A stretch of DNA of 64,000 nucleotides, from assembly GCA_013911885.1 (NCBI GenBank), contig JACESI010000011.1, positions 11,409 through 75,408 on the forward strand, read 5' to 3'. The translations under genes and the position numbers were made by a program. How positions within the stretch are numbered: position 1 is the first letter of the stretch; each line of letters begins with the position of its first letter. A model generated the notes under the pieces. It was given only the letters and a program-made list of their open reading frames with translations. It was not told the origin of the DNA and ran no database searches. This document shows, in pieces, positions 12,925 through 36,273 of the stretch. This stretch comes from Hyphomicrobiales bacterium (lineage in GTDB: Bacteria > Pseudomonadota > Alphaproteobacteria > Rhizobiales > JACESI01).

Positions 12925-13836
12925 ATGACGGGAAATGCCCCATTGATCCTTGATGGCAAGGTGATGAGCGCAAAGGTAATCACCAATGTGAAGGCTGCGA
13001 CCGAACGTCTGATCGCGAATACCGGCGTCACGCCGGGTATTGCCGTTATCATTGTCGGCAATGTCCCGGCAAGCGAAGTTTACGTCCGCAATAAGGGCCG
13101 GACAGCCGAGGATTGCGGGTTCAAATCCGTGACCCATCGCCTCCCGGAAGAGACGAGCGAGGCCGCGCTTCTGGCTTTGGTGGAGAAACTCAATCAGGAC
13201 CGAACCATCCACGCAGTCCTCGTTCAGCTTCCGGTGCCGGACCATATCGACGATGCAAAGGTGATACAGACCATCGCGCCGGCAAAGGATGTTGACGGAT
13301 TCCATTTCATCAATGTCGGCAAACTTGGAACCGGCGCGACGGAGACCGCGCTCATTGCCTGCACGCCGGTCGGCTCGATGGTTCTCCTGCGTGAAGCGCG
13401 CGGGCGCGATCTCTCGGGTCTTCATGCCGTGGTCGTCGGGCGGTCGAATATTGTCGGAAAGCCGATGGCGAACCTTCTGCTTCAGGCCAATGCGACCGTG
13501 ACCATCGCCCACAGCCGCACAAGCGATCTGCCCGCCATGTGCCGGACCGCCGATATTCTTATCGCCGCTGTCGGACGCCCTGAGATGATCAGGGGCGACT
13601 GGGTGAAGCCGGGTGCGACCGTGATTGACGTTGGCATAAACCGGATTGCAGCACCGGAAAAAGGCGAAGGAAAATCGCGCCTGGTTGGTGATGTTGCCTA
13701 TGATGAGGCGGCAAGGGTTGCCGGTGCGATCACGCCGGTGCCGGGTGGCGTCGGCCCGATGACCATCGCCATGCTGATGGCAAACACGCTGAAGGCCGCT
13801 TCCGTTGCAGCCGGGGTGGAGCCGGAGGCAATCTGA
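12925..13836 (+). CDS. folD: Bifunctional 5,10-methylene-THF dehydrogenase / methenyl-THF cyclohydrolase
   Basis: Start trimmed to ATG 12925, preceded by GGAGAA. Typical FolD sequence (ILDGKV..., [30 protein letters not shown]). Confidence 0.95.
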
Positions 13837-13873
13837 TGCGACCCGATGCGACCTGATGCGACCTGATGCGACC
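13834..13873. repeat. Tandem 10-bp repeat x4 (TGATGCGACC; copy 2 is CGATGCGACC)
   Basis: Read directly: tgatgcgacc cgatgcgacc tgatgcgacc tgatgcgacc. The first copy contains the folD stop codon. Confidence 0.9.
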
Positions 13874-13906
13874 GGGCGCCCTTTCGCCGAGGTCACTTGC
13901 CTGCTG

Positions 13907-14401
13907 TCAGGCCACGGGCATGACCATGCAGGTCGAAGAGCCGCTCGCGAGAAGGCGGCCTTCGCTGTCATAGAGTTTTGCCTCGGAGGCGGCAGAGCGC
14001 CGTCCGCGCGCGATAACGACGCCTTCACAGCGCAAATCCCCGAGTTCGGGCTGAATGGCGCGGTGGTAGACGATCTTGATTTCCATCGTCGTGTAGCCAT
14101 CTCCGGCCTGAAGCGTGGAATGAACGGCACAGCCAAGCGCAGTATCGAGCACGGTTGCCGCATAGCCGCCATGGATCGAGCCAATCGGGTTGAAAAAGCG
14201 CGGTTCCGGCCGGGCGATGAGGGTGATGCGGCCTTCTTCAACGGCGACAAAATCCATCGGCGCGGTGCCTGCAATCGGCGGCGGCGGATATTTTCCTGAA
14301 ATCATTCCTTCAAAAAATGCCAGTCCGGATACAGCGAAAACCTCGGCAGTGGGAACCACGCCTGTCTGCAGGCCAGAGAGTGTTTTCGGAAAATCATTCA
14401 T
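13907..14401 (-). CDS. PaaI/hotdog-fold thioesterase family protein
   Basis: 164 aa. Has the GSIHGGYAATVLDTALGCAV segment typical of PaaI-type thioesterases. Confidence 0.75.
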   Translation of the reverse strand: MNDFPKTLSGLQTGVVPTAEVFAVSGLAFFEGMISGKYPPPPIAGTAPMDFVAVEEGRITLIARPEPRFFNPIGSIHGGYAATVLDTALGCAVHSTLQAGDGYTTMEIKIVYHRAIQPELGDLRCEGVVIARGRRSAASEAKLYDSEGRLLASGSSTCMVMPVA

Positions 14402-14574
14402 GCTTATGCCCTTTCATTCGTGACCATGCCGCCCGCTCATCACCTGTGCCCTAGCATGAAATAGGGCGGGCCTTGACGAATTATCCGACAGGTCTTGTCG
14501 TATTTAGGCAGGACCTCACGATTTCTGATAAATATGGTCCAGACATGTTAGTGCGCAAAGGCGGGATTGGAGAT

Positions 14575-17088
14575 ATGGCAACAGAAGTTCGGGCGGTGGT
14601 GGTTGGTGGCGGAGTGGTGGGTGTCTCGACGCTCTATCATCTCGCGAAAAAGGGTTGGGCCGACTGCATCCTTTTCGAGCGCAAGGAACTTACCTCCGGC
14701 TCGACATGGCACGCGGCTGGTTTGCTGCCGCTTTTCAACATGAGTTATTCCGTTGGCCAGATTCACAAATATTCGGTCAATTTATACAAGGATCTTGAGG
14801 CATTAACAGGCAAGAATACCGGATATGCCGGTGTTTCAAACATTCGCCTTGCCCGTACGAAAGACCGGATGGATGAATATCAGTATTATGCGGGTATAGC
14901 GGAGACGATCGGCGTCAAGGTGGATTTCCTGACACCCGCAGAACTGAAGGAAATCTGGCCTCTGTGCGAGACCGACGGCCTTCTGGGCGCGATCCGGCAC
15001 AAGGAGGATGGCTATATCCAGCCCGCTGATCTCACTCAGGCCCTTGCCAAGGGCGCGCGCGATCTCGGCGCTGCCATCCACCGCAACACCGCTGTCAGCA
15101 CAATCACACAGGCGGCCGACGGGCGCTGGCTCGTTGCGACCGGCAAGGGCGATTTTCTTGCAGAACATGTCGTCTCCTGCACAGGTAGTTTTGTCCGCCA
15201 GACCGGTCGAATGGTCGGACTCAACGTGCCGGTCATCCCGGTAGAACATCAATATATCGTGACCGAGCCCCACCCCGCCCTCAAGGCGCGCCATGCGGCC
15301 GGCTTGCCGGAAATGGGGGTTCTGCGTGAAAGCGATTCGGCCTGGTATATGCGTGAAGAGGCAGGCGGCTTCATTCTCGGGCCTTATGAGAAGGGCGCGC
15401 CTTGCTGCTATTTGGACAGTCCGGATGCAGATTCCGAATATGAGTTGTTTCAGGAAGACCTCGAACGCCTTGAGCCGCATATCGAGGCGGCAATCGCGCG
15501 GGTGCCGGCCTTTGGCGAAGTCGGGATCAAGAAGGTCTATAACGGCGCGATCTGCTACACGCCGGACAGTTCGCCGATGATCGGACCGGCATGGAATCTC
15601 AAGAATTTCTGGCTCAATGAAGGCCATGCCTTCGGTATCACCGCAGCAGGTGGCGCGGGCTGGCAACTGGCGGAATGGATTGTGGATGGAGAGCCGACCA
15701 TCGACATGATGGACGTCGATCCGCGCCGCTTCGGCCCCGATCTTACCGAGGCTTATGTGCGTGAGAAAAACGAAGAGGCATATGCGAATCAATTCACCAT
15801 CCATTATCCCGATGAGGTGCGCCCCGCTGGACGCCCGCTGAAAACCGCCCCCTGCTATAGCCGGATGAAGGCGCTCGGTGCGGTCTTCGGTGCTGTCAAT
15901 CAGTGGGAACGGCCAAACTGGTTTATGCCGAGCGCCGACTATGCGCTCACGGAGGAAGACCTTTCAAAGGACGATACGCTGACCAGCGAGAACCACGCCC
16001 CCGCTCTCGAGGATGGCCGCATTGTTGAGAAATGGTCGTTCCGGCGCTCGAATTATTTCGAGCATGTCGGCCATGAGGTGAAGAATGTCACCAGCAATGT
16101 CGGCCTTCTCGATATGTCCTCTTTTGCGAAAATGCTGGTCACTGGTCCCGGCGCGCGCGACTGGCTTGAGAGCATCCTCGCCAACAGCCTGCCGAAGAAG
16201 CAGGGCAGCATTGCGCTCTGCCATCTTCTTACAGCGCGCGGCGGCGTCCGCTCGGAATTCACGGTCTATGAGCGCGAAGCGGGTGTCTTTTACCTCGTCT
16301 CCGCCGGCGCCTTCGAACTGCATGATCACGACACGCTGCGCAAACTCCTGCCCTCCGACGGGTCGGTCACGCTTCAACCGGTTACCGAACAATTCGGCGT
16401 TCTGGTGCTCGCCGGACCGAAAGCGCGCACGCTGCTTGCGAAAGTTACTCATGCCGATGTCTCGAACACGGCCTTTCCATGGCTTTCCGGCAAGAGGATC
16501 AATATCGGCCGTGCCGGGTGTCATGCGATCCGGGTCAATTTCGTGGGCGAACTCGGCTATGAACTCCACCATCCGATCAACCAGCAGAACCTGATTTTCG
16601 ACACGCTGATGGAAGAAGGCGTGGAATTCGGCATCAAGCCCTTCGGTATCCGCGCGATGGATTCGATGCGGCTTGAAAAATCCTACCGCCTGATCCCGCG
16701 CGAACTGTCGATCGAATATTCGGCTTATGAAAGCGGGCTTGATCGTTTCATCAAACCGCAAAAACACTTCATCGGTCGTGATGCGCTGATGGCATCGGAA
16801 GAGCGTGGCCGCAACTGGCGTTTCGTCACCCTCGAAGTGCACGGCGTTCACGATGCGGATGCCCGCGGATCGGAGACAATTTACAAGGACGGTGAGTGCG
16901 TTGGTCGCGCGACCTCCGGCGGTTATGGCTGGCGCCTCGGCAAATCCCTGGCTCTTGCCATGGTGAAGCCGGAACTGGGAGAGATCGGGACCGAAGTCGA
17001 GATCCGGATCCTTGGCAAACGCTTCCGGGCAACCGTGATCGAAGAAAGCCCGTTCGACCCGCAAAACGAACGTTTACGCGCCAGCTAG
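14575..17088 (+). CDS. FAD-dependent dimethylglycine/sarcosine-dehydrogenase-type enzyme (DAO domain fused to GcvT aminomethyltransferase domain)
   Basis: Start trimmed to ATG 14575, preceded by GGATTGGAG. The dinucleotide fold VVVGGGVVGVST lies at the N-terminus. About 837 aa, with a C-terminal folate-binding GcvT-like half (GELGYELH..., GYGWRLGKSLALAMV). Confidence 0.85.
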   Translation: MATEVRAVVVGGGVVGVSTLYHLAKKGWADCILFERKELTSGSTWHAAGLLPLFNMSYSVGQIHKYSVNLYKDLEALTGKNTGYAGVSNIRLARTKDRMDEYQYYAGIAETIGVKVDFLTPAELKEIWPLCETDGLLGAIRHKEDGYIQPADLTQALAKGARDLGAAIHRNTAVSTITQAADGRWLVATGKGDFLAEHVVSCTGSFVRQTGRMVGLNVPVIPVEHQYIVTEPHPALKARHAAGLPEMGVLRESDSAWYMREEAGGFILGPYEKGAPCCYLDSPDADSEYELFQEDLERLEPHIEAAIARVPAFGEVGIKKVYNGAICYTPDSSPMIGPAWNLKNFWLNEGHAFGITAAGGAGWQLAEWIVDGEPTIDMMDVDPRRFGPDLTEAYVREKNEEAYANQFTIHYPDEVRPAGRPLKTAPCYSRMKALGAVFGAVNQWERPNWFMPSADYALTEEDLSKDDTLTSENHAPALEDGRIVEKWSFRRSNYFEHVGHEVKNVTSNVGLLDMSSFAKMLVTGPGARDWLESILANSLPKKQGSIALCHLLTARGGVRSEFTVYEREAGVFYLVSAGAFELHDHDTLRKLLPSDGSVTLQPVTEQFGVLVLAGPKARTLLAKVTHADVSNTAFPWLSGKRINIGRAGCHAIRVNFVGELGYELHHPINQQNLIFDTLMEEGVEFGIKPFGIRAMDSMRLEKSYRLIPRELSIEYSAYESGLDRFIKPQKHFIGRDALMASEERGRNWRFVTLEVHGVHDADARGSETIYKDGECVGRATSGGYGWRLGKSLALAMVKPELGEIGTEVEIRILGKRFRATVIEESPFDPQNERLRAS

Positions 17089-17150: not shown

Positions 17151-17370
17151 TGCAGTTTGCTGATGCAAATCTTGCCCGGTGAAAAGGGGCCTTTGAAAAA
17201 TATTCCTTGGTTAAAATCAAGTTAGAGTTGAGAAATAAAGACTTATTTTCAGCGCATACCGGCGTGCTGGAATAACGGAAATCAAGTTTATGAGGTTCAG
17301 GTGCCCGCGGCTATTGCCTCTCGACCACGCGTGTGGCAAAGGTCGGAACAAAGCTAAGTTGGGGAGCAGC

Positions 17371-18222
17371 ATGAAAGTTACCGGGCTTCATACCTATCCG
17401 GTGAAAAGTTTGGGTGGATTGGATCACGCAAGCGTCGAACTGGAAATGCGCGGCCTCGGTTGTGACCGGCGCTATATGCTGGTCGATGAGGATAACGCCT
17501 TTCTGACACAGCGGGAATTGCCGCTCCTTGCGACCTTTCGTGTCGAACATCGCGACGAGCGTTTTGTCATTCATCTGCCGGATGGCGGGGAAGTGAAGTT
17601 GCGGGCATCGGATGACAGCGATACGCGCAGCCATGTTGTGGTCTGGAATGATATCGTCTCCGCCGCGACCGTGGAGGCGGATATCAGCGCGAAATTAAGC
17701 GCCAGCCTCGGTCGTGCGGTTCGCCTTGTCTACATGGATGATAACGCCCGGCGCATTGCAGACCAGGTTTTCACGGTCGATCCGACACCGGTGAGCTTTG
17801 CCGACGGTTTCCCTGTTCTGCTGACGAGTGAGGCATCCCTTGCAGCCCTCAACCATCAAATCCAGAAAAATGGTTCCAATCCGGTGCCGATGGACCGTTT
17901 TCGCGCGAACATTGTCATCGACGGTATCCATGCTTTTGACGAGGACACGTTTCTGACCATGAAAATCGGCGCTTTGACGTTTGATGTCGTGAAACCGTGC
18001 CCGCGCTGTGTCGTGCCGACACGGGATCAGAAAACGGGGCTCGGCGCGGACGATAACGAGCCGATCCGCGCCCTGACGCAGATCCGGCGGTCGCTTGAAA
18101 AAGATCTGCCGGGCGTCTTTTTCGGGGTCAATCTTGTTCCGAAGGCGGTCGGGCGGCTGTCGCTTGGGGACCCGGTTGAAATTGTCGCGCGGCGCGCCGT
18201 TCCCTGGGCCGTCCGCAGCTAG
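17371..18222 (+). CDS. MOSC domain-containing protein (with N-terminal beta-barrel domain)
   Basis: Start trimmed to ATG 17371 (MKVTGLHTYPVKSLGG...), the characteristic MOSC_N opening. Conserved C-terminal Cys context VVKPCPRCVVPTRDQ. Confidence 0.85.
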   Translation: MKVTGLHTYPVKSLGGLDHASVELEMRGLGCDRRYMLVDEDNAFLTQRELPLLATFRVEHRDERFVIHLPDGGEVKLRASDDSDTRSHVVVWNDIVSAATVEADISAKLSASLGRAVRLVYMDDNARRIADQVFTVDPTPVSFADGFPVLLTSEASLAALNHQIQKNGSNPVPMDRFRANIVIDGIHAFDEDTFLTMKIGALTFDVVKPCPRCVVPTRDQKTGLGADDNEPIRALTQIRRSLEKDLPGVFFGVNLVPKAVGRLSLGDPVEIVARRAVPWAVRS

Positions 18223-18224: not shown

Positions 18225-18965
18225 TCAGGTCTGTCTGACGCTGATCTGATGAATGAAATAGGACACATTGCCCGCGAGGATCGACGCCGGATCCTCGCCT
18301 CTCATGCAGGTTCCGATGAGGGGGACGAGGATTTCGCGTTTGCGCAATTCGCGGGCAACGCGGTGGTCGATTTCCGGAAAGACATAGTGGCGTGCATTGT
18401 GAAAAATGGGAAAGCGTTCCCAGTGATATTGGTCTTCGCCGCGTGAGCCGTTGAATGTATAGTAGTTGCAGTTCGGATTGAACTGGTTCTCGAGAGACGG
18501 GATTTTGAAGTTCTTGATATTCGAAACGAAGGCTTCATAGCGATGCTCACGCGGCATCACCACCGGATCGACACTGAATTGCGGGCAGAACGCCATGCAT
18601 AGCGAAGCATTGAGATAATTGCTTGCGACAATCGCATTGAAACCGCCCATGCTGACGCCAAGAAGCGTGATGTTCAGGCCTTCCGTTACCGGCCGAACGA
18701 TGTCGGCAATATGGTCGAAATCAATGTGATTGCCCCAGCTCACGGTCTTGTCGGAGACGTAGATGGCACTGCACGCGAGAAGACGCGCCGTCTTGACAAA
18801 TTGCGTCTTTCGCCGCCGTTCCTGATCGAGTGCCTCGCCGACATGGCCCATTTCAAGCCCGGCATCTGTGAAGCAGACAAGGACATGCTCCGTCGAGCCG
18901 CGATCGACAAACGAGACTCGTAATTGCGGGTCTTCGAAAAGAACCCTCGTTTTTTCGTTCGTCAA
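18225..18965 (-). CDS. Hypothetical protein, possible alpha/beta-hydrolase fold
   Basis: 246-aa ORF whose ATG overlaps the upstream regulator's stop (ATGA). Nucleophile-elbow-like motif GVSMGG. I recognise no other family signature. Confidence 0.5.
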   Translation of the reverse strand: MTNEKTRVLFEDPQLRVSFVDRGSTEHVLVCFTDAGLEMGHVGEALDQERRRKTQFVKTARLLACSAIYVSDKTVSWGNHIDFDHIADIVRPVTEGLNITLLGVSMGGFNAIVASNYLNASLCMAFCPQFSVDPVVMPREHRYEAFVSNIKNFKIPSLENQFNPNCNYYTFNGSRGEDQYHWERFPIFHNARHYVFPEIDHRVARELRKREILVPLIGTCMRGEDPASILAGNVSYFIHQISVRQT

Positions 18966-20077
18966 ATGACCAATATCTCTCTTTGTTGCCGTTCCTGCTG
19001 TGGCGAACGACTATATAGTTCACGGTAGCATTTTGAGAAATGCGACGCGGAAACAAATCCGCAGGCAACGCCGACTTCGACAATCTGGATTTCCGATTGA
19101 AGCAGCAGATGCCGGGCCCGGTCGAGCCGCAGCTCCAGGTAATAGCGCGCCGGCGAGCGACCGAGATTGCGCAGAAAAAGACGCTCGATCTGACGCCGCG
19201 AAAGCCCGACATATCCGGCAATTTCAAGAAGCGAGAGCGGTTCGGAGAGGTTCGCCTCCATCAGCTCGATGATTGTCAGGAGTTTTGAATTTTGAACCCC
19301 GAGCCGGGCGCGCAGCGGAAGACGCTGCCGGTCGCCGGGGTTGCGCACCCGATCGGTGAGGCAGAGTTCACACACCCGATTGACGACATTGGCATCATGC
19401 TCCTGATCGATCAGATGAAGCACGAGATCGAGCGCAGCAGTGCCGCCCGCGCATGTGTAGATATTGCCGTCAAATTCAAAAAGATCAGCATAAACATTAA
19501 CTTGCGGAAAACGCTCGGCAAAGCCAGGCAGCGATTCCCAATGGATCGCGCAGCGCTTGTCATCAAGCAGCCCTGCGTCGGCCAGGATCCACGCACCGGT
19601 GCAAAGCCCGGCAAGGGCGACATCGCGCCCCAGCGACGCCTTGAGCCAGCCATAAAGATGGCGGTTGCGATAGGTCTCGACGCCAAGACCCGAACAGACG
19701 AAAATCATATCCGGGCGCTCGCCAATGTGAATCCGGCCGCGCTCTTCTGCAAGCGACCCATCGACCGAGCAGGCGATATTGTTGCTTGCACTCACCGGTT
19801 CGCCATTCTCCGAGATCAGCCGCCAGCTATAGACCTCGCGGCCATAGTGCCGGTTGGTCAGCCGCAACGGCTCGAGTGCTGTCGCAAAGGCGATCATCGA
19901 AAAATTGGGAACAAGAAAAAAGACAAAATGCTTTTTGCGGCGTGCGCCGCTCGCCTTCAGGGGCCGTGACAGGGCATCCAATTGCAATAATCCCGGATCG
20001 TGAACAATGGACAGGAAGAAAACAAAGCCTATCCGTGGGGCCGGCGCAAGCCCTATCGCATCTGGGCCTTCTTGCAA
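18962..20077 (-). CDS. GlxA-family (DJ-1/PfpI domain + AraC HTH) transcriptional regulator, GbdR-like
   Basis: N-terminal amidotransferase-like domain (FVFFLVPNFSMIAFATALEPLR). C-terminal AraC HTH (LSRRQIERLF..., CGFVSASHFSKCYRELY). Divergent from soxB. Exact start is uncertain. Confidence 0.85.
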   Translation of the reverse strand: MQEGPDAIGLAPAPRIGFVFFLSIVHDPGLLQLDALSRPLKASGARRKKHFVFFLVPNFSMIAFATALEPLRLTNRHYGREVYSWRLISENGEPVSASNNIACSVDGSLAEERGRIHIGERPDMIFVCSGLGVETYRNRHLYGWLKASLGRDVALAGLCTGAWILADAGLLDDKRCAIHWESLPGFAERFPQVNVYADLFEFDGNIYTCAGGTAALDLVLHLIDQEHDANVVNRVCELCLTDRVRNPGDRQRLPLRARLGVQNSKLLTIIELMEANLSEPLSLLEIAGYVGLSRRQIERLFLRNLGRSPARYYLELRLDRARHLLLQSEIQIVEVGVACGFVSASHFSKCYRELYSRSPQQERQQREILVI

Positions 20078-20192
20078 GTGCTGTTTCAGCTACGACGCCC
20101 GCGAACCGGAAGATGTCGCATGACCGCTTGCGGGAAACCGCTTAGTGTTTAGAGTCTGGAAGTCGATTTTCACAAAGCCGGGATTTTTGCCG

Positions 20193-21446: not shown

Positions 21447-21455
21447 AGGTCAACC

Positions 21456-27418: not shown

Positions 27419-29461
27419 TCAGGAGGAAGCGCGCTGGCGGCGGCGCGCCCGTGCCCCGCGCGTCGGATCGTCGTTGACCGCGCTGCGCTCCGGCAGGTTC
27501 ACGACACGTGCAAGATTCGGAAAGCTCTCCGTCTTGTTGGGCAGCGCCATCGCACTCACGAAATGGCGTTGGAAGTCTGGTTCGAGCGCGGTTTCGATCT
27601 TTTCGATCCGCCCGACCATGGTCTCGATTTCGCGCCGGTAGCTTTGGTTCAAAAGCGCCATGCGCGCCCCGGTCCCCGCCGCGTTGCCGACAGCGCTCAC
27701 CTGATCGAGCGGACAATCCGGGATCAGACCCAGAACCATCGCATATTTCGGGTCGATGAAATTGCCGAACGCGCCTGCAAGCTTGATCCGGCTCACATGA
27801 TCGACGCCGAGTTTGTCCATCAGCAGTTTGACGCCTGCATAAAGGGCGGCCTTGGCAAGTTGGATCGCGCGAACATCGGTCTGCCTGATCAGCAGGTCCG
27901 GATTACCGTTTTCACCGCGCCAGGCGACATAAGCGAACGTCCGGCCTTCCGCGATCACGCGGTCGGAGCGCGCAGCCATTGCGCCATCGATGATGCCGTC
28001 TTCGGTGATGATACCGGCAAGAAACATTTCAGCGATCGTCTCGATGATGCCGGAACCGCAAATTCCGGTGACGCCGGTCTGCTTGATCTCATCGGCAAAG
28101 CCGTCCTCATCCGACCATTTTTCCGATCCGATCACGCGAATGCGGGGTTCCAGCGTTTCCGTGTCGATGCGGATGCGCTCGATTGCGCCGGGTGCGGCGC
28201 GCTGGCCGCACGAGATCTCCGCCCCTTCGAAAGCCGGACCCGTGGGCGAGGAGGCGGCGACGGTGCGCGCCTTCGAGCCGAGGATGATTTCGGCATTCGT
28301 TCCGATGTCAACGAGGAGCGTGACCGCATCCTCTTCATAAGGCCGCTCGGCGAGTGTCGCTGCTGCGGCATCGGCCCCGACATGGCCGGCGATACAGGGC
28401 AGCATATAGACCCGCGCCCCAGGGTTAAGGTCGAGGCCGAGGGTGGCTGCCGGAAGATCGAGCGCCCCGGATAGCGCAAGCGCAAAAGGCGCCTGTCCGA
28501 GTTCGGTCGGGTCAAGTCCGAGAAAAAGATGATGCATGATCGGATTGCCGACAAAGACGGCTTCCAGAATATCGTTGCGCGCCACGCCGGACTGGCTGCA
28601 TATATCCTCGATCAGCCCGCTGATCGCCTCGCGCACGACACGGGTCAGCGCCGCATCGCCGCCGGGATTCATCATCACATAGGAGACCCGCGACATCAGG
28701 TCTTCGCCAAAGCGGATCTGCGGATTGGCAACACCGGCGGAAGCAAGGGTCTCGCCGGTCATCATGTCTGAGAGATGCATTGCGATGGTGGTGGAGCCGA
28801 TATCACAGGCAAGACCGTAAAGCGTCTCGCGATAGCCGGGCCAAAGTGCGGTCACTGTCGCGGTGTTCTTGCCTGCGTGGACAGCGGCGGTTACCGCCCA
28901 TTTGCCCTTGCGCAGGATTGTCTGCAGATCGCGGTAAAGGTGAAAATCAAGCGTGAGGTGCTCATAGCCCCATTCGTCCTCAAGGGTGCGCAAAAGCCGG
29001 TCGCTGTCGCCAAGCGGCTTGTGCATATCCGGCTCTTCGATCTCGACATAGTGCAGACGGGTCGCGGGGTCGCGGGCGATGATGCGGGTATCGACGGCCT
29101 TGCGCACCATCTGATTGTTGGCACTTGCTGCCTGCGGAATGTCGATGACGATGTCGCTGAGAATTCTCGACGAGCAGGAAAGCCGCCGGTCATCACCAAG
29201 ATCGCGCTTCGACTTGTAGCGCGCCTCGGTATCGGAAAAGGCTGAAAGGTGGTCAGCGCTCGAAATGATGCCGTGTTTAGCGAAATGACCTTCTGCAACG
29301 CTGACCTGGCATTTGCCGCAAATTCCGCGCCCACCGCAAACACTCTCGACATAAACCCCGAGCGTGCGGGCGGCCTCGAGTACGGGGGTGCCGATGGCGA
29401 CGCGACCGCGCTTGCCGGACGGCATGAAGAGGACAAGGGCGTTTTTCTGGCTCGTGGTCAT
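27419..29461 (-). CDS. Reductive activator of corrinoid proteins (RACo/RamA-like: plant-type 2Fe-2S ferredoxin + ASKHA ATPase, DUF4445)
   Basis: Start trimmed to ATG 29461 (MTTSQKNALVLFMPSGK...). N-terminal ferredoxin Cys pattern CGGRGICGKCQV. Large ASKHA-like body (DIGSTTIAMHL..., VDIGTNAEI...). Last enzyme gene of the corrinoid operon. Confidence 0.85.
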   Translation of the reverse strand: MTTSQKNALVLFMPSGKRGRVAIGTPVLEAARTLGVYVESVCGGRGICGKCQVSVAEGHFAKHGIISSADHLSAFSDTEARYKSKRDLGDDRRLSCSSRILSDIVIDIPQAASANNQMVRKAVDTRIIARDPATRLHYVEIEEPDMHKPLGDSDRLLRTLEDEWGYEHLTLDFHLYRDLQTILRKGKWAVTAAVHAGKNTATVTALWPGYRETLYGLACDIGSTTIAMHLSDMMTGETLASAGVANPQIRFGEDLMSRVSYVMMNPGGDAALTRVVREAISGLIEDICSQSGVARNDILEAVFVGNPIMHHLFLGLDPTELGQAPFALALSGALDLPAATLGLDLNPGARVYMLPCIAGHVGADAAAATLAERPYEEDAVTLLVDIGTNAEIILGSKARTVAASSPTGPAFEGAEISCGQRAAPGAIERIRIDTETLEPRIRVIGSEKWSDEDGFADEIKQTGVTGICGSGIIETIAEMFLAGIITEDGIIDGAMAARSDRVIAEGRTFAYVAWRGENGNPDLLIRQTDVRAIQLAKAALYAGVKLLMDKLGVDHVSRIKLAGAFGNFIDPKYAMVLGLIPDCPLDQVSAVGNAAGTGARMALLNQSYRREIETMVGRIEKIETALEPDFQRHFVSAMALPNKTESFPNLARVVNLPERSAVNDDPTRGARARRRQRASS

Positions 29462-29509: not shown

Positions 29510-30445
29510 CTAGGCACCGCCGACACGTCCCGCGCGCCCGCCACGGCGTCTGCCGCCCGTTGAGGCGGCATTCGGATCTGCGCCCGGTGTCGGCTCGCGG
29601 TAGGTTTTGATCCATGTGGCGCAATGTTCATCGGTCGACATCAGCACATTCGCCGCGCGCACCATTTCCATTTCCTGCGGGCGGCACGGGTTCATGATCG
29701 CCGATGTCATCCCCGAGGCAATCGCCATCGGCAGGAAAGCCGCGTTGATCGCATGGCGATGCGGCAGGCCGAAAGAAACATTCGAGGCACCGCAGGTGGT
29801 ATTGACGCCAAGTTCTTCGCGCAGGCGCCGCACAAGGCGGAAAACCTGAAGCCCGGCCGTGCCCATCGCGCCAATCGGCATGACCAGCGGATCGACAATG
29901 ATGTCATGCGGCTTGATGCCATAATCGGCGGCGTGCTCGACAATGCGCTTTGCGACTGCGAAACGCACGTCCGGGTCCTCGGAAATGCCGGTCTCGTCGT
30001 TCGAGATCGCAACAACCGGCACGTTGTATTTCTTGATCAAGGGAAGGATTGCCTCGAGCTTTTCGACCTCGCCGGTAACGGAGTTGACGAGGGGACGGCC
30101 TTCAGTGACCGCAAGTCCGGCAGCAAGGGCGGAAGTCACGGACGAATCGATGGAAATCGGAAGATTGGTGAGGCTCTGGACAAGTTTCAATGTCTGCACC
30201 AGAAGCGGCGGCTCGGTCTCGTTCGGGTTCACCGCCGTCACCCCGGCATTAACATCGAGCATTGTCGCGCCCGCGGCAACCTGTTCGAGCACATCCCTGG
30301 TCACCGTGTCGAAATTGCCGGCTTTCATTTCCTCGGCGAGCTTCTTGCGCCCGGTCGGGTTGATCCGCTCGCCGATGACGCAAAAAGGCTGGTCGAAACC
30401 GATATGGATTTCCCTGGATTTGGAGGCAACAAGCGTGCGCGTCAT
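29510..30445 (-). CDS. Methyltetrahydrofolate:corrinoid methyltransferase (pterin-binding/MtrH-like domain)
   Basis: Start trimmed to ATG 30445, preceded by AAGGA. Pterin-binding TIM-barrel signatures (VIGERINPTGRKKL, MLDVNAG, SIDS, NSV, GASNVSFGLP). Confidence 0.85.
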   Translation of the reverse strand: MTRTLVASKSREIHIGFDQPFCVIGERINPTGRKKLAEEMKAGNFDTVTRDVLEQVAAGATMLDVNAGVTAVNPNETEPPLLVQTLKLVQSLTNLPISIDSSVTSALAAGLAVTEGRPLVNSVTGEVEKLEAILPLIKKYNVPVVAISNDETGISEDPDVRFAVAKRIVEHAADYGIKPHDIIVDPLVMPIGAMGTAGLQVFRLVRRLREELGVNTTCGASNVSFGLPHRHAINAAFLPMAIASGMTSAIMNPCRPQEMEMVRAANVLMSTDEHCATWIKTYREPTPGADPNAASTGGRRRGGRAGRVGGA

Positions 30446-30514: not shown

Positions 30515-31444
30515 TCAGGCGTGGCCAGAGCTAGTTTCATTACCGTATAAAGATATCTTTATATTCCAACTTCCTCGTTGTGCAAGCCATTCCGCTGATT
30601 TATTTACACCGCCGAAGGGAAACACATGCATCTGTGCCACAGGCCCATCGGGATTTTCCTGCCAGAATTTTTCGATCGGCTTCACCACGGGTTCGGGGGA
30701 GGGTGTGGTCGCGAGAGCCGTCAGCGCGCCAGCGCGCTTTTTCAGGAATTTCATCGAGTTGCCGATACCGGCAATCGCAGCGAAGCGCAGCAGCGTCGTC
30801 ATCTTGGCCGGACCGGCGACACCGAGGTGGATCGGCAGGTTGATACCGATGGCCTTCACATGCCAGGCCCAGTTGGCAAAGGCCTCGCCGTCGAAACCAA
30901 ACTGCGTCACGATCCGCATTTGTGCATTGGTTTCGCTCTGGAAATCGGCCTTTTCCCTCAGGATTGGATAATCCTGGCCCTTTGGGGCCGAAGGGTTGCC
31001 TTCCGGGTGGCCGCCGACTGCGATGAATTTGATGCCGTTGCGCTCCATCACGCCAGAGCGCAGGATATCCATGGTCGAAGCATAGGGCCCCATCTGCCGG
31101 TTCGGTTCGCCCGCAACGATGAGTACGTCGTCAAGACCCGCCTCCTGTGTCAGTCGCTTGATGTGGCTTTCCAGTTCCGCGGCACTGTTGAGGCGGCGGG
31201 CGGCAATGTGCTGAACCGGGCGGTAACCGGCATCGGTCAACCGGCGGGCAACAGTCGCAAGCTCAAGATGGCTGTGATTGCCGATATCGGTGATGTAGGT
31301 TCGGGTGCCCGGCGGAAAAAGCCCGGCCGGGGCGCCTTCCGCCAGGATGGCCTTGGGTGAAATCTCGATCGAAGCCGGGATAAAGGCGTTTGCCGCGCTC
31401 ATTGGAATACTGCCGGGTGTAAGATCAAGCGCCTTGATCCCCAT
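30515..31444 (-). CDS. metF: Methylenetetrahydrofolate reductase (MetF family)
   Basis: ATG 31444 lies 8 nt downstream of a perfect GAGGAGG. About 309 aa with MetF-like segments (EISPKA..., GGHPEGNP..., QFGFD). Confidence 0.8.
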   Translation of the reverse strand: MGIKALDLTPGSIPMSAANAFIPASIEISPKAILAEGAPAGLFPPGTRTYITDIGNHSHLELATVARRLTDAGYRPVQHIAARRLNSAAELESHIKRLTQEAGLDDVLIVAGEPNRQMGPYASTMDILRSGVMERNGIKFIAVGGHPEGNPSAPKGQDYPILREKADFQSETNAQMRIVTQFGFDGEAFANWAWHVKAIGINLPIHLGVAGPAKMTTLLRFAAIAGIGNSMKFLKKRAGALTALATTPSPEPVVKPIEKFWQENPDGPVAQMHVFPFGGVNKSAEWLAQRGSWNIKISLYGNETSSGHA

Positions 31445-31766
31445 TTTCAAAACCTCCTCGTTCGATCAGCATTTTGACGCGCTCCTTCGGATACGCCGCC
31501 TCAATTGCTGCCGCCGCGCTCGCCGCCTCGGCTTCCAGATCGTCGCCGCAGGCTTCCGGATCGCTTTTGCGCCATTGTTCGAGATAGTCATCCGTCTGAT
31601 CGAGACCGGCGCGCATGGCGCAGGCATCAATCGCCGTGATGAACCGCTTGTCGAGTTCCCGCTTTGCACTGACCCGTCCGGCCTTGCAGATCACCTGCGC
31701 CGGAATGTCCCGCCAATAGACGATCACCTTCTGGGCGGCATTTCGGCTATTGCTGGAACGGGGCAT
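31425..31766 (-). CDS. Small conserved hypothetical protein, resembling the family annotated 'virulence factor' that co-occurs with metF/corrinoid MT genes
   Basis: 113-aa ORF with AGGAGG 7 nt upstream of ATG 31766. Its 3' end overlaps the metF start. The family assignment is from memory only. Confidence 0.6.
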   Translation of the reverse strand: MPRSSNSRNAAQKVIVYWRDIPAQVICKAGRVSAKRELDKRFITAIDACAMRAGLDQTDDYLEQWRKSDPEACGDDLEAEAASAAAAIEAAYPKERVKMLIERGGFENGDQGA

Positions 31767-31863: not shown

Positions 31864-32598
31864 TTAAGGGCGCAAATCGGCAATTGCGGCTGAAAGGTCG
31901 CCATAGCCCGTCGGGCGGTGCTCGAACTCGAGCCCGAGTTTTGCAGCAATTGCCCGGGCCCGGTCAAGCAGGTCAGGGTCCTCGGCCTGCGACAAAAACA
32001 CAACTTTTTCATATGCGCCGAAATAGGCGTCGCGCAATTCCGGGTGGCGATCAAGGCCGAGCGGACGGAAGGTGAGGGCGTCGAAATGGCGGGCAAGAAA
32101 ATCAGTCAGAAAAAACGAACGCATATCCAGATCACCGCGTGCGGTGAACGCTTCGGCGCCGCTGAAAAACGCATAGCAATGCGCGCCGGGAAGGCGGGCA
32201 ACCCCCTCCTTTTCCAGAAGCGCATCAAGAAGGCCGCCCGTCCCGCAATCGGCGTAACCGCAGAACACGCTTGTGAACCCCGCAGCACGCGCCTCGGCAA
32301 TCGCGCGCGCCATCTCCGGCACGATTTTTTGCGGCGTGTTGTGGAGTTTGGCCGGAAGGCAGGTGAGCGCGACATGCTCAAGCCGGTTGATTGCCAATAT
32401 GTCGAGGATTTCGCGGGCCAGAGCCCCGCAGGCAATCACGCAGACCCGATCGGGCGTCGGCGCAAGCGTATAGGCGGGTGCGCCTTTTTCGATGAGAAAG
32501 TCGAAATCATTCGGCCGCAGTTCACCAATCCTGCCCGCCCGCCCGCCTTTGCGGGATGGGCGCGCGCGCCTCTCTCCCCCGCGCAGGTCGGGAGGCAT
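31864..32598 (-). CDS. DUF1638 domain-containing protein
   Basis: Core VCVIACGALAREI...CGYADCGTGG resembles DUF1638 proteins found in corrinoid methyltransferase clusters. I chose ATG 32598, 2 nt after the corrinoid-protein stop. The track ORF extends to a TTG at 32676, so the start is uncertain. Confidence 0.7.
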   Translation of the reverse strand: MPPDLRGGERRARPSRKGGRAGRIGELRPNDFDFLIEKGAPAYTLAPTPDRVCVIACGALAREILDILAINRLEHVALTCLPAKLHNTPQKIVPEMARAIAEARAAGFTSVFCGYADCGTGGLLDALLEKEGVARLPGAHCYAFFSGAEAFTARGDLDMRSFFLTDFLARHFDALTFRPLGLDRHPELRDAYFGAYEKVVFLSQAEDPDLLDRARAIAAKLGLEFEHRPTGYGDLSAAIADLRP

Positions 32599-32600: not shown

Positions 32601-33299
32601 TCAGGAAGCGCGGCTGTTGTGGCGTCGCGCGATCAGATTTTTCGCGGTTTCGACAGCCACGGCCGCGTCCCGGCAATAAGCATCAGCGCCAACGGCCGCA
32701 CCGAATTCCTCGTTGAGTGGTGCGCCACCGACAAGCACGATATAATCATCGCGAATGCCGATTGCCTTCATCTGGTCGATCACGACCTTCATATAGGGCA
32801 TGGTCGTCGTCAGCAGCGCCGACATGCCAAGAATATCCGGTTTGTGCTCATTGAGGGCTGCGATGAATTCGTCGGCGTCGGTGTTGATGCCGAGATCATA
32901 AACATCAAAGCCCGCACCTTCCATCATCATGCCGACCAGGTTCTTGCCGATATCGTGAATATCGCCCTTGACCGTGCCCGTCACCATCGAGCCGAGCTTC
33001 GGCGCGCCGGTTTCAACGAGAAGCGGACGCAGGATGAACATGCCCGCTTTCATAGCATTGGCGGCGAGAAGCACTTCCGGCACGAACAGAATACCGTCGC
33101 GAAAATCATTGCCGACAATCCGCATACCCTCGACCAATGATTTGGTGAGAACGTCATAAGGCGTCCATCCGCGCTCCAGAAGGATGTTGGTCCCCTCTTC
33201 GATTTCCTCTTTGAGGCCATCGTAAAGATCATCCATCATTTGTGCGACAAGGTCATCGTCGGAGAGTTCGGAAAGAATAATTTCATCTTCATCGGACAT
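32601..33299 (-). CDS. Corrinoid (cobalamin-binding) methyl-carrier protein (B12-cap + Rossmann B12-binding domain)
   Basis: 232 aa. Contains the base-off/His-on DxHxxG motif (GDIHDIGKNLV) followed by SALLTTT and GGAP(L), as in MtgC/MtbC/MetH cobalamin domains. Confidence 0.9.
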   Translation of the reverse strand: MSDEDEIILSELSDDDLVAQMMDDLYDGLKEEIEEGTNILLERGWTPYDVLTKSLVEGMRIVGNDFRDGILFVPEVLLAANAMKAGMFILRPLLVETGAPKLGSMVTGTVKGDIHDIGKNLVGMMMEGAGFDVYDLGINTDADEFIAALNEHKPDILGMSALLTTTMPYMKVVIDQMKAIGIRDDYIVLVGGAPLNEEFGAAVGADAYCRDAAVAVETAKNLIARRHNSRAS

Positions 33300-33321
33300 A
33301 GCGGCGGTCTTTCGGGATCTG

Positions 33322-33346: not shown

Positions 33347-33561
33347 GTAATCATTTCTCTTTGAAGCTGCAAGCAAAACCATTCCAAAGCCAGAGAAATA
33401 GCGTAGCGCTGATTTTGCCCGGAAAGTGTGTGTGGCGCGGCACGACAGGGCGCAAATAAGCTATTGCGGAAAACTGGCATCTCTAGTCTGAATAGGCGAA
33501 GCACGGCGACCGACCGCCACAGGCAAGCGCATGCAAAACTTTATCAGACGGGCAAGAATCG

Positions 33562-35118
33562 ATGGCTGACCCTTCAGAATCGGAGACACCGCAGGCAGGC
33601 CGACGCAGCGGCGGCAGAAACGCGCGCCATGCAGCCCGTATCAGCGGCGCAATGGTCAAGAACTCCTACATAAGGCGCAAGATCCCAGCCTATGAGGTGT
33701 TCGATGAAGAAGGCGTTGCGATCATCGAAAACAACGCCGATATCATTCTGGAAGAGATCGGAATCGAGTTCCGCGATGACCCTGAATCGGTTTCGATGTG
33801 GCGCGCTGCGGGCGCGCATATCGACGGTGAACGCGTTCGCTTTCCGAAAGGCATGTTGCGCGAACTGATCCGCACCGCGCCGCGGGAATTCACCCAGTTT
33901 GCGCGCAATCCGGCCCGATCGGTCCAGATCGGCGGCAACAACACCGTGTTCGCGCCGGTCTATGGCCCGCCTTTCGTGCGCACGCTCGAAGGCGAAAGAC
34001 GCTATGCGACCATTGAGGATTTCCGCTCATTCGTGAAACTCGCCTATCTCGCTCCCGCCATGCACCATTCCGGTGGCACGGTGTGCGAGCCTGTCGATAT
34101 CCCGGTCAACAAGCGTCATCTCGATATGGTCTACAGCCATATCCGCTATTCCGATATGCCGTTCATGGGTTCGGTGACTGCCCCTGAACGGGCGCAGGAT
34201 TCGGTTGATATGGCGAAACTCGTTTTCGGCGCGGATTTTGTCGATCAGAACTGCGTTCTGCTCAATCTCATCAACGTCAACTCGCCGATGACTTATGACG
34301 CGACCATGCTCGGCTCCGCCAAGGTCTACGCCCGCAACAACCAGGCCTGCGTGATTTCGCCGTTCATTCTGGCGGGCGCCATGTCGCCGGTGACGGCGGC
34401 GGCGACCCTGACCCAGATCCTTGCCGAGGCGATGGCGGGTATGGCCTTCACCCAGCTCTGCCGGCCCGGCGCGCCTGTCGTCTTCGGCACATTCGCAAGC
34501 TCGATCTCGATGCAATCCGGCGCACCGACCTTCGGCACGCCCGAACCGGCAATGGTGCTTTATGGCGCAGCCCAGCTTGCCCGACGGCTTGGCGTTCCGT
34601 TCCGTTCAGGTGGCTCGCTCTGCGGGTCCAAAGTCGTGGACGCGCAGGCCGCCTATGAAAGCGCACAGACGATCACCCCGACGCTTCTTGCCGGAACCAA
34701 TTTCGTGCTCCACGCCGCGGGCTGGCTCGAGGGGGGGCTTGTCTCCTCATTCGAGAAATTCGTGATGGATTGCGATCAGCTCGGCATGATGCAGGCAATG
34801 GCGGGCGGCATTGACCTGACGGAAAACGGCCAGGGCCTTTCTGCCTTGCGCGAAGTCGGGCCGGGCGCTCATTTTCTCGGCTGTGCGCACACGCAGGCGA
34901 ATTTCCAGACCGCGTTTTATCGGTCGAGCCTTGCCGACAACAATTCCTATGAGCAATGGCTCGCGGATGGCGAGAACCGGATCGAGGATCGTGCCCGCAA
35001 ATCCTGCCGCAAGATGCTCGACGAATATCAGGCCCCCGCGCTCGATATCGCCGTCGATTCAGCGCTTATCGACTTCATCGACCAGAAAAAGCGCTCGATG
35101 CCCGATGCCTTCACGTGA
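33562..35118 (+). CDS. MttB-superfamily methyltransferase, non-pyrrolysine member (quaternary-amine:corrinoid methyltransferase candidate)
   Basis: Uninterrupted 518-aa ORF with no in-frame TAG. TIM-barrel MttB-like sequence throughout (YEVFDEEG...IENNADIILEEIGIEF..., NSPMTYD, FILAGAMSPVT, GAPTFGTPE). Divergent from the corrinoid-protein operon. Confidence 0.9.
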   Translation: MADPSESETPQAGRRSGGRNARHAARISGAMVKNSYIRRKIPAYEVFDEEGVAIIENNADIILEEIGIEFRDDPESVSMWRAAGAHIDGERVRFPKGMLRELIRTAPREFTQFARNPARSVQIGGNNTVFAPVYGPPFVRTLEGERRYATIEDFRSFVKLAYLAPAMHHSGGTVCEPVDIPVNKRHLDMVYSHIRYSDMPFMGSVTAPERAQDSVDMAKLVFGADFVDQNCVLLNLINVNSPMTYDATMLGSAKVYARNNQACVISPFILAGAMSPVTAAATLTQILAEAMAGMAFTQLCRPGAPVVFGTFASSISMQSGAPTFGTPEPAMVLYGAAQLARRLGVPFRSGGSLCGSKVVDAQAAYESAQTITPTLLAGTNFVLHAAGWLEGGLVSSFEKFVMDCDQLGMMQAMAGGIDLTENGQGLSALREVGPGAHFLGCAHTQANFQTAFYRSSLADNNSYEQWLADGENRIEDRARKSCRKMLDEYQAPALDIAVDSALIDFIDQKKRSMPDAFT

Positions 35119-35235
35119 AAGGCAGGCGATGCCGTTCCGAGGATCGCGCAATCGGAAGGGTTCAAGCTGCACTATGAGGTGGTGCGAAGAGCGTTCAAGC
35201 CCTACGAATAAGAGCTTTGCCTGGATTGAAAAACC

Positions 35236-36273
35236 TCAGGCTTCTGCCCGTCGGCGCCCGCGACGTTCGCGGCGCGGTGCGGTACCATCATCTCTTGCCG
35301 GCGGCGCGACGAGTTTGCCGATTTTCTCGACAATTGCCTCAATCGTCGGACGCTCCGCGCGCTGATAGCGGTCGAGCGCATCACGCATGGCTTTCACATG
35401 CTCGGGCTTTGTCCCGCAACAGCCGCCAATGATCCGCACACCTGCATCCGCCGCCATGGCGATATAATCAGCCATGAGATCGGGGGTGCCGGTATAGACC
35501 GTGGTCGCGCCTTTGACGACGGGAATGCCGCAATTTGCTTTGGCGACAATGATCGCTTCCGGCGCAGCATCGGTCATTGACAGGACCGAGACCAGAAGAT
35601 CGGAAGCCCCGACGCCGCAATTCGCGCCAAAGGCAAGCGGCTTGCCGGGAAGGGCATGTGCGAGTTCCGCAAGGGCTGCCGGAGCGAGACCCATCATGGT
35701 CTTTCCTGCCGTGTCGAAACTCGCGGTGAAGACATAGGCAATGCCGACCTCGACCGCTGCTTCCGCAGCCGCCTGAATTTCGTCGGCGGCAGACATTGTT
35801 TCGATCCACGCGACATCGGCGCCGCCATCCTTGAGGCCACGCATCTGTTCTTTGAAGGCATTGCGTGCGTCGGTCAGTGTCATCGCGCCGAGCGGCACGA
35901 AAAGTTCGCCGGTCGGGCCGACTGAACCGGCGACAATCACCGGCCGCTCCGCCTTTTCCGCCACACGGGAGGCAATTTCCGCGCCGGCCCGGTTGATTTC
36001 ATAGGTTTGATTTTCCGCCTTGTGCAATTTCAGGCGCGGCGCGTTGGCACCGAATGTGTTGGTCAGAATGATATCCGAACCTGCATCGACAAACATCTGA
36101 TGCAGGGCTTCCGGCTTGTGCGGCTCGCTGACATTCCAAAGATCCGGTGGAAACCCCGGCTCCAGCCCCATTTCCATGAAATTGGTCCCGGTCGCTCCAT
36201 CGGCGAGAAGGATCTGCTTTTCATTCAAAAGCGCTTGAAGCGAGCTGCGCATGGCGATTGTCCGTTTCGTCAA
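35236..36273 (-). CDS. Homocysteine S-methyltransferase-domain protein (MetH N-terminal module / BHMT-like)
   Basis: 345 aa. Hcy-binding barrel (LLADGATGTN..., IILTNTFGAN) with zinc-ligand cysteines (NCG... and GGCCGT). Confidence 0.85.
   Translation of the reverse strand: MTKRTIAMRSSLQALLNEKQILLADGATGTNFMEMGLEPGFPPDLWNVSEPHKPEALHQMFVDAGSDIILTNTFGANAPRLKLHKAENQTYEINRAGAEIASRVAEKAERPVIVAGSVGPTGELFVPLGAMTLTDARNAFKEQMRGLKDGGADVAWIETMSAADEIQAAAEAAVEVGIAYVFTASFDTAGKTMMGLAPAALAELAHALPGKPLAFGANCGVGASDLLVSVLSMTDAAPEAIIVAKANCGIPVVKGATTVYTGTPDLMADYIAMAADAGVRIIGGCCGTKPEHVKAMRDALDRYQRAERPTIEAIVEKIGKLVAPPARDDGTAPRRERRGRRRAEA

Follow-up and report, generated by a model that had tools for sequence, protein, structure and literature searches.

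The 64-kb stretch of DNA analysed here (64,000 nucleotides, hereafter the window; contig JACESI010000011.1 of the Hyphomicrobiales bacterium assembly GCA_013911885.1) contains, within a 23-kb region at positions 12,925 to 36,273, what is very probably (probability about 0.8) a complete glycine betaine catabolic cluster of the aerobic, cobalamin-dependent MtgBCD(E) type. Gene content, domains, motifs and synteny were observed directly, and the chemistry and physiology that we ascribe to the cluster are modelled on published orthologous systems. A first-pass annotation of the window had proposed that betaine is converted to dimethylglycine by a corrinoid system, dimethylglycine to sarcosine by an enzyme of the dimethylglycine dehydrogenase (DMGDH) type, and sarcosine to glycine by the sarcosine oxidase SoxBDAG, with the methyl groups captured on tetrahydrofolate (THF). 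This order of steps is supported by the full set of components found here, by synteny with a cluster of Sinorhizobium meliloti, by linkage of the relevant genes in two other genomes (loci L003 and L057), and by published genetics in Ruegeria pomeroyi and Phaeobacter inhibens. The pathway hypothesis was itself already published in 2025, and the cluster is an unusually complete new example of a known system; removal of the first methyl group of betaine in aerobes without the Rieske oxygenase GbcAB was an open question until that year, and the locus adds no new principle. What it assembles within 23 kb are three demethylation steps, a methyl-THF (CH3-THF) oxidase, FolD, cobalamin reactivation, a methionine-synthase module and a candidate regulator. 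This compactness provides independent comparative support for betaine as the substrate of alphaproteobacterial MttB homologs of the kind represented by the structure 4yyc, and makes the cluster convenient to clone for heterologous reconstitution.

Gene content and proposed route

Open reading frames (ORFs) were mapped across the window and then scanned against Pfam and NCBIfam, with equivalog cutoffs taken from NCBIfam. The gene calls match those stored for an identical public scaffold, an 84-kb metagenome scaffold (ENA ERZ23491067, scaffold_144). All of the genes named by the first-pass annotation (folD, the DMGDH-type fusion, the AraC regulator, soxBDAG, a methyl-accepting chemotaxis protein (MCP), MttB, the corrinoid protein, a MetF-like gene and a homocysteine methyltransferase) were recovered in these scans, which added a RACo/RamA-type activase, a DUF1638 protein, a PF13769 protein, a MOSC protein, a 4HBT thioesterase and a 246-aa ORF. 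The components of the proposed route and its regulator are as follows.

12880-13836, + strand: folD, bifunctional methylene-THF dehydrogenase/methenyl-THF cyclohydrolase (Pfam THF_DHG_CYH and THF_DHG_CYH_C; NF010785, 474 bits against a cutoff of 396)
14473-17088, + strand: DMGDH-type fusion of flavin adenine dinucleotide (FAD) and GcvT domains, 871 aa (Pfam DAO, FAO_M, GCV_T, GCV_T_C)
18962-20077, − strand: GbdR/GlxA-like AraC regulator, divergent from soxB (Pfam DJ-1/PfpI and HTH_18)
20145-25443, + strand: soxB (20145-21446), soxD (21456-21833), soxA (21830-24838) and soxG (24835-25443), by Pfam
27419-29461, − strand: RACo/RamA-like reductive activase, 680 aa in the public gene call (Pfam Fer2, RACo_linker, Raco_middle, RACo_C_ter)
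29510-30445, − strand: MtgD, pterin-binding methyl-corrinoid:THF methyltransferase (Pfam Pterin_bind, PF00809; NF005719)
30515-31444, − strand: MetF2, MTHFR-like, S6MTHFR-type (weak Pfam MTHFR match, 27.9 bits; match to 7xg9)
31425-31766, − strand: small PF13769 ("Virulence_fact") protein within the corrinoid operon (E 6e-24)
31864-32598, − strand: DUF1638 protein (Pfam DUF1638)
32601-33299, − strand: MtgC, stand-alone cobalamin-binding protein (Pfam B12-binding_2, PF02607, and B12-binding, PF02310)
33562-35118, + strand: MtgB, pyrrolysine-free TIM-barrel methyltransferase of the MttB family, 518 aa (PF06253, 770 bits over the full length)
35236-36252, − strand: MtgE (annotated Bmt), zinc homocysteine S-methyltransferase (Pfam S-methyl_trans, PF02574; NF005718)

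In the proposed route, MtgB would move one betaine methyl group to Co(I)-MtgC, yielding dimethylglycine and CH3-Co(III)-MtgC, MtgD would hand the methyl group from MtgC to THF, and MetF2 would oxidise the CH3-THF to methylene-THF (CH2-THF). The RACo/RamA-like activase, probably together with the DUF1638 protein, would re-reduce inactive Co(II). Dimethylglycine would be converted to sarcosine by the DMGDH-type enzyme and sarcosine to glycine by SoxBDAG, each step producing CH2-THF via a GcvT folate domain, and FolD would oxidise CH2-THF and carry the one-carbon (C1) units onward. MtgE would use MtgC and MtgD in reverse to methylate homocysteine, such that the locus would also operate as a split methionine synthase.

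The layout of the region differs in two respects from its initial description. The genes assigned to an MttB/corrinoid operon are all present, but they form two divergent units rather than a single operon: mtgB stands alone on the + strand, and mtgC, the DUF1638 gene, the PF13769 gene, metF2, mtgD and the RACo gene (in order of transcription) make up a tight six-gene operon on the − strand, with neighbours spaced from a 26-bp overlap up to 97 bp. The region had also been called a 23-kb island. Its G+C content is even (0.56-0.64) and no tRNA genes were found in the 64-kb window, which argues for a gene cluster and not for a compositional or mobile island.

Relation to published aerobic systems

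The set of components is that of the MtgBCDE systems of R. pomeroyi and P. inhibens, with which the window shares a PF06253 MtgB, a PF02310 MtgC, a PF00809 MtgD, a PF02574 MtgE, MetF2, RamA/RACo and DUF1638. MtgC and MtgD are likewise predicted to serve two purposes, and the later steps by DMGDH and sarcosine oxidase and the oxidation of THF-bound C1 units are also in common. The genes are scattered in those organisms, whereas the window holds all of them, mtgE included, within 23 kb together with folD and the GbdR-like regulator; for marine taxa, frequent proximity to mtgBCD is reported for the later demethylation genes but not for mtgE (PMC12478193). Knockouts of mtgC and mtgD in R. pomeroyi are methionine auxotrophs in which added methionine does not restore growth on betaine or betaine consumption (Mausz et al., PNAS 2025, PMC12478193), and MtgB1/2 (PF06253), MtgC, MtgD, MetF2, RamA and DUF1638 are induced in this species on betaine, choline and carnitine (PMC12478193). 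A P. inhibens double mutant without mtgB1 and gbcAB does not grow on betaine (bioRxiv 10.64898/2025.12.19.695462).

The S. meliloti cluster, whose MttB homolog is the protein of structure 4yyc and whose bmt gene is that of Barra et al. 2006 (per PMC12478193), has the order and orientation of the window, with ASKHA/RACo, methyl-THF:cobalamin methyltransferase, MTHFR, PF13769, DUF1638 and cobalamin-binding genes, a divergent MttB gene and bmt downstream, in keeping with the reported colocalisation of mtgBCDE and reactivation genes in this species (PMC12478193). Identities to the window proteins are 74% for MtgB, 81% for MtgC, 80% for MtgD, 60% for MtgE and 66% for the GlxA/GbdR-like regulator. 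Unlike in the window, the 20-kb flanks of the S. meliloti cluster contain neither sox nor DMGDH genes, about 5 kb of unrelated genes separate mttB from bmt, and the MTHFR function is represented by an MTHFR together with an "MTHFR C-terminal domain" protein; the window MetF2 finds no match there at a coverage of at least 50%.

Conservation of the corrinoid core

Scanning the MttB protein against one genome per species recovered 80 loci at 71-86% identity, mostly from Hyphomicrobiales and also from Minwuia, Kiloniellales, Kordiimonadales and Inquilinus; addition of S. meliloti (L001) gave 81 loci. By tblastn of the window proteins against these loci, with flanks of 10 kb on each side, MtgC was present in 73 of the 81, DUF1638 in 67, MtgD in 60, RACo in 57, MtgE in 51 and an S6MTHFR-type MetF2 in 25. 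The conserved core that emerges has RACo, MtgD, MetF2, DUF1638 and MtgC on one strand, MtgB divergent and MtgE nearby, and it extends through Hyphomicrobiales and beyond.

Two loci connect this core, or MtgB itself, to the later demethylation steps. In L003, which at 86% MttB identity ranks among the two closest relatives, soxA and soxG adjoin the RACo gene. In L057, a Kiloniellales metagenome-assembled genome (MAG), the MtgB ortholog lies between a DMGDH ortholog (60%) and soxBDAG with a GbdR-like gene, and no corrinoid genes were found within the examined flanks. L057 is the most telling arrangement, since its link between the MtgB clade and the breakdown of dimethylglycine and sarcosine does not depend on the corrinoid genes.

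The same window bears on whether an oxygenase, rather than a corrinoid system, takes the first methyl group. No Rieske domain was found by the Pfam and NCBIfam scans in any annotated ORF of the 64-kb window, and the sole GbcB match, of 26 bits, falls on the RACo ferredoxin domain. The earlier remark that a GbcAB-type Rieske oxygenase is missing is thus borne out for these 64 kb. Only 64 kb of the 84-kb scaffold are in view, and a GbcAB encoded outside them could be the main betaine demethylase, with the corrinoid route secondary or conditional. We regard this as unlikely, albeit with an appreciable chance of being correct: 22 of 40 Rhodobacterales, as well as S. meliloti, possess both GbcAB and MtgBCD, many Alphaproteobacteria, S. 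meliloti among them, carry both routes and switch between them by cobalt/B12 supply, and the choice of route in P. inhibens depends on that supply (bioRxiv 10.64898/2025.12.19.695462). However, P. inhibens uses the B12 route when cobalt is replete (bioRxiv 10.64898/2025.12.19.695462), and in the window the dimethylglycine and sarcosine genes cluster with the corrinoid system and not with gbcAB. A main role for GbcAB is moreover compatible with operation of the corrinoid route and does not exclude it. Because GbcAB often coexists with MtgBCD, a gbcAB locus elsewhere in the genome would not refute corrinoid-dependent demethylation.

The MtgB family and its putative betaine pocket

MtgB is encoded by a 518-aa ORF without an in-frame stop codon. 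Its nearest solved structure is 4yyc (839 bits, E 9e-252), which is deposited solely as a "putative trimethylamine methyltransferase" and for which we found no literature. The protein matches the biochemically characterised MtgB of Desulfitobacterium hafniense (2qne, 9yce) at 404 bits (E 1e-119 to 1e-120) and the pyrrolysine (Pyl) MttB of Methanosarcina barkeri at just 110 bits. An identity as a trimethylamine methyltransferase was considered for this MttB-family protein and rejected, as the gene has no pyrrolysine codon and scores 258 bits against TIGR02369 (pyrrolysine MttB), below the cutoff of 525.

The betaine pocket of D. hafniense MtgB has been assigned to Y97, R312, H348 and F356 in a 2026 structure-function study that includes a crystal structure, in which an F356L substitution raised the Km several hundred-fold (PMC13080624). 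Transfer of these positions through a HMMER alignment reveals that the window MtgB retains three of the four betaine-binding residues, as Y134, R348 and H384 (equivalent to Y97, R312 and H348). Y134 is invariant in 81 of 81 orthologs, whereas each of the 10 neighbouring paralogs (36-39% identical) has Gly or Ser at this position, so that this tyrosine marks the MtgB ortholog group. An invariant Trp388 lies four residues upstream of G392, the residue at the Phe356 position, and the pattern Y-R-H-W-G is found in every one of the 81 orthologs. With the anaerobic MtgABC system of D. hafniense (Ticak et al. 2014; PMC13080624) the window therefore shares the MtgB fold family, the Tyr, Arg and His residues, the lack of pyrrolysine and, as proposed, the chemistry of the first step. 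Differences include the host, an aerobe-type alphaproteobacterium, and a system that would double as a methionine synthase. The invariant Tyr/Trp/Gly form that the betaine pocket takes in this alphaproteobacterial clade may be a new point.

Several observations weigh against the assignment of betaine catabolism to this cluster. Foremost among them, the F356 position is Gly in the window MtgB and in all 81 orthologs, which leaves the four-residue D. hafniense motif incomplete and, as judged from the alignment, is a real departure from it. The betaine activity of the alphaproteobacterial MtgB clade is ascribed by analogy with orthologous systems, and this, together with the Phe-to-Gly change in the pocket, is the main weakness of our interpretation; the window MtgB would be tied to the R. 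pomeroyi and P. inhibens system via 74% identity and synteny with the S. meliloti cluster. The host, an alphaproteobacterium of soil/marine type, is uncultured, and its sequence comes from a metagenome scaffold. With regard to synteny between the MttB operon and the sox/DMGDH genes, which had been suggested as a check on the proposed pathway, the corrinoid core is conserved in most of the 80 loci, but it is linked to sox or DMGDH genes in only 2 of the 80 other loci (10 kb on each side), and this linkage is lineage-specific. Finally, no operator was found that the mtgB/mtgC intergenic promoters share with those of sox or DMGDH, and the direct repeat described below for the soxB promoter is absent from the mtgC/mtgB spacer.

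A rival reading takes the corrinoid module mainly for a split methionine synthase, lets the MttB protein act on another methylated compound such as proline betaine, carnitine, choline or another quaternary amine, and assigns the attack on betaine to a different enzyme. Loss of the F356 equivalent in the whole clade would fit such a scheme, as would the presence in such genomes of several MttB paralogs of unassigned substrate, the direct adjacency of MtgE to mtgB, and the published description of the betaine motif as no more than a minimal residue set, with further determinants of specificity. We nonetheless consider it improbable. The MtgB ortholog stands beside DMGDH and/or sox genes in the window, in L003 and in L057, Tyr134 separates the ortholog group from the paralogs, MetF2 is of the CH3-THF-oxidising type, which would be pointless for methionine synthesis alone, and the published mutants lose betaine use even when methionine is provided (PMC12478193).

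A second MttB paralog, 36-39% identical and with the pocket GRHWG, was observed in loci of the Phyllobacterium/Mesorhizobium type (L035, 17012-21132; also L039, L044, L047, L048, L054 and L075). It is paired with a DAO/GcvT fusion that is about 35% identical to the DMGDH-type protein of the window and lies a few kb from mtgE; the pair may form a module for a different methylated amine.

Methyl transfer, reactivation and oxidation of CH3-THF

MtgC carries the His-on cobalamin motif DxHxxG as DIHDIG at residues 113-118. It falls below the cutoffs of both models for the anaerobe MtgC proteins (NF047996, 203 bits against 370; NF047995, 170 bits against 310), a difference from the D. hafniense system. 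By analogy with the published systems, MtgC is predicted to be the methyl carrier common to betaine demethylation and methionine synthesis. Its predicted partner MtgD scores 385 bits against NF005719 (cutoff 259), and its best solved relatives are the folate domain of MetH and MeTr/AcsE. This MetH/AcsE-like character again differs from the D. hafniense system, whose MtgA is not among the solved relatives of MtgD. On the same analogy, MtgD is predicted to be reversible and to serve both the betaine route and methionine synthesis.

The gene first annotated as metF does encode an MTHFR-like protein, and its match to 7xg9, the MTHFR of Sphingobium lignivorans SYK-6 (E 1e-51), places it with the S6MTHFR type, the CH3-THF-oxidising kind; the Pfam MTHFR match is marginal at 27.9 bits. 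The SYK-6 enzyme defines an MTHFR family of its own, with a preference for oxidising CH3-THF that demethylases generate (PMC11868366), and the window MetF2, as its homolog, would run oxidatively from CH3-THF to CH2-THF. The two systems differ in the origin of the substrate: in SYK-6, the O-demethylases LigM and DesA produce CH3-THF by direct action on THF, whereas in the window it would come from a corrinoid relay. MetF2 is the most strongly induced protein of R. pomeroyi on N-osmolytes (PMC12478193). The small PF13769 ("virulence factor") protein encoded next to metF2 also adjoins MTHFR genes in S. meliloti (L001, 16404-16706).

The RACo/RamA-like activase, which combines a 2Fe-2S ferredoxin domain with an ASKHA ATPase, would return Co(II) to Co(I), and the DUF1638 protein is proposed as a second component of corrinoid reactivation; its ortholog SPO2162 is induced on N-osmolytes (PMC12478193).

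MtgE and the direct Bmt reaction

MtgE scores 487 bits against NF005718, the equivalog model for betaine-homocysteine S-methyltransferase (cutoff 338), and contains a zinc triad of Cys219, Cys285 and Cys286 in GANCG and GGCCG contexts. It matches the homocysteine (Hcy) domain of Thermotoga maritima MetH at 155 bits and human BHMT at 52 bits, the latter over part of the protein (residues 15-233). The first-pass annotation had singled out this protein as the only Bmt-like candidate. It is indeed an ortholog of the bacterial, S. meliloti-type Bmt, and it likely serves chiefly as the homocysteine module alongside MtgC and MtgD in a split methionine synthase, a role that had not been considered. 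A published reinterpretation of the S. meliloti "Bmt" as MtgE gives it this function, within a split methionine synthase sharing MtgC and MtgD (PMC12478193). The function of the bacterial Bmt family is disputed (PMC12478193, PMC12366255): purified P. inhibens Bmt produces methionine from betaine or dimethylsulfoniopropionate (DMSP) in vitro with no THF or B12 (PMC12366255), and a direct betaine:homocysteine side reaction by MtgE is therefore possible.

That this Bmt-like enzyme performs the first demethylation directly (betaine + homocysteine -> dimethylglycine + methionine, the classical S. meliloti proposal), with no involvement of the corrinoid system, is in our estimation the least probable account, since the NF005718 score and the in vitro activity of the P. 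inhibens ortholog on betaine and DMSP (PMC12366255) are set against a protein far closer to the MetH Hcy domain than to human BHMT, S. meliloti-type proteins reported to be without the betaine-binding residues of BHMT (PMC12478193), an S. meliloti bmt mutant that grows on betaine when given methionine (PMC12478193), a fall in MtgE and rise in MtgBCD on betaine (PMC12478193; bioRxiv 10.64898/2025.12.19.695462), and a stoichiometry of one homocysteine per methyl group that would be unable to carry the bulk carbon flux.

Dimethylglycine and sarcosine oxidation

The DMGDH-type protein has rat and human DMGDH as its best solved relatives (4p9s, 5l46; E 1e-169), with dimethylglycine oxidase at 1e-100. 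SoxBDAG comprises four subunits encoded in the order B-D-A-G (Pfam DAO; SoxD; Fer2_4, SO_alpha_A3 and GCV_T; SoxG), with the folate-binding GCV_T domain in the alpha subunit, and the genes lie 9 bp apart or overlap by 4 bp. SoxB (TIGR01373, 647 bits against 529) and SoxA (TIGR01372, 1372 against 1164) exceed their cutoffs, and SoxD (108 bits against 116.5) and SoxG (72 against 144) fall under the NCBIfam cutoffs and above the Pfam gathering scores. Directly after the folD stop codon, at 13837-13876, are four tandem copies of the 10-bp unit TGCGACCYGA.

A GbdR-like candidate regulator

The regulator divergent from soxB has GbdR (NF052371) as its best NCBIfam match, at 369 bits against a cutoff of 480, and shares the GbdR architecture of a DJ-1/PfpI domain with an AraC helix-turn-helix (HTH) domain; its true start probably lies about 30 codons further in. 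Placement of a GbdR-like gene divergent from soxBDAG recalls the GbdR pathway of Pseudomonas (gbcAB, dgcAB, soxBDAG). The window departs from that pathway in the sub-cutoff score of the regulator, in a first step that would not be carried out by a Rieske enzyme and in a second step assigned to a DMGDH-type enzyme and not to DgcAB.

Between the regulator and soxB lies a direct repeat, GACGC-N16-GTCGC (20094-20119, + strand), which is a candidate GbdR-type operator picked after viewing the sequence. The spacing of its half-sites resembles that of GbdR and CdhR sites in Pseudomonas (PMC5806209), and a similar repeat occurs upstream of soxB in L057 (about 17817-17842) in the same orientation relative to soxB. 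The general pattern GNCGC-N16-GNCGC has 2 matches in the window against 1.8 expected by chance, and among the promoters compared the repeat lies only at soxB.

The regulator also recurs at corrinoid clusters elsewhere. A GbdR-like gene of 63-66% identity adjoins the RACo end of the cluster in L001, L007, L014 and L067; these regulator-bearing loci belong to S. meliloti, Rhizobium albus, Pararhizobium haloflavum and a Tepidamorphaceae MAG, and none has sox genes nearby. This recurrent association of a GbdR-like gene with the corrinoid cluster may be a new point. From the compact layout of the window, a GbdR-like regulator is a reasonable first candidate for control of alphaproteobacterial MttB homologs of the 4yyc kind. 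A broader joint reading, which we advance only tentatively and consider doubtful as a whole, is that the Tyr134/Trp388 pair replaces Tyr97/Phe356 in accommodating betaine and that in this lineage the three-step pathway and the split methionine synthase form one regulon under the GbdR-like AraC protein. If true, no transcriptional regulator would have been assigned to the aerobic B12-dependent betaine route before this GbdR-like protein.

Within the divergent mtgC-mtgB spacer, no 12-mer recurs in 12 or more of 67 orthologous spacers. A block upstream of mtgB at 33441-33470 (+ strand; GGCACGACAGGGCGCAAATAAGCTATTGCG, with the core GCGCAAAYAAGCYAYTG) is conserved in the spacers of the three closest relatives (L002, L003 and L005) and is not recognisable in the more distant L001, L007, L014 and L067. 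Its sole exact match in the window is itself, and it does not recur at the other promoters of the cluster, including those of sox, DMGDH and folD. From its conservation, the block is a candidate promoter or operator element. A scan of the whole window against Rfam at gathering thresholds returned no riboswitch, and hence no cobalamin or S-adenosylmethionine (SAM) riboswitch controlling the cluster genes; promoter and terminator scans gave no more sites than shuffled sequence.

Neighbouring genes and minor observations

The remaining genes within and directly beside the region are as follows.

13907-14401, − strand: small 4HBT (hotdog) thioesterase between folD and the DMGDH-type gene (PF03061, E 3e-10)
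17290-18222, + strand: MOSC-domain protein downstream of the DMGDH-type gene (Pfam MOSC_N and MOSC; no NCBIfam match)
18225-18965, − strand: ORF of 246 aa, downstream of the regulator and co-oriented with it (matches no family in Pfam or NCBIfam)
25509-27284, − strand: MCP (Pfam Tll0287-like, HAMP, MCPsignal)
36411-37898, + strand: cysG, siroheme synthase/uroporphyrinogen-III methyltransferase (NF007922, 540 bits against a cutoff of 400)
38012-39277, + strand: glycerate 2-kinase-like gene (DUF4147/MOFRL; glycerate 2-kinase models score best, below cutoff)

The MCP gene lies 134 bp downstream of the corrinoid operon. A role for its product as a betaine chemoreceptor was considered and rejected as improbable: the sensor domain is periplasmic, Tll0287-like and carries a CxxCH haem-c motif (CVACH, residue 178), and the gene is unmatched in L003, the nearest relative in which sox genes adjoin the cluster. 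The domain points to sensing of redox state or a gas through haem c and not to a receptor for quaternary amines.

On the other side of mtgE, cysG and the glycerate 2-kinase-like gene are possible accessories of the cluster, which could supply precorrin-2 for B12 and an exit from the serine cycle, respectively. The MtgE-CysG-GlyK linkage is kept in L005 (13571-16325).

Further along the window, a 387-aa ORF with no Pfam family (54125-55288, + strand) sits in a stretch where G+C content is sharply low (0.43; about 0.58 elsewhere), and the gene was probably acquired recently.

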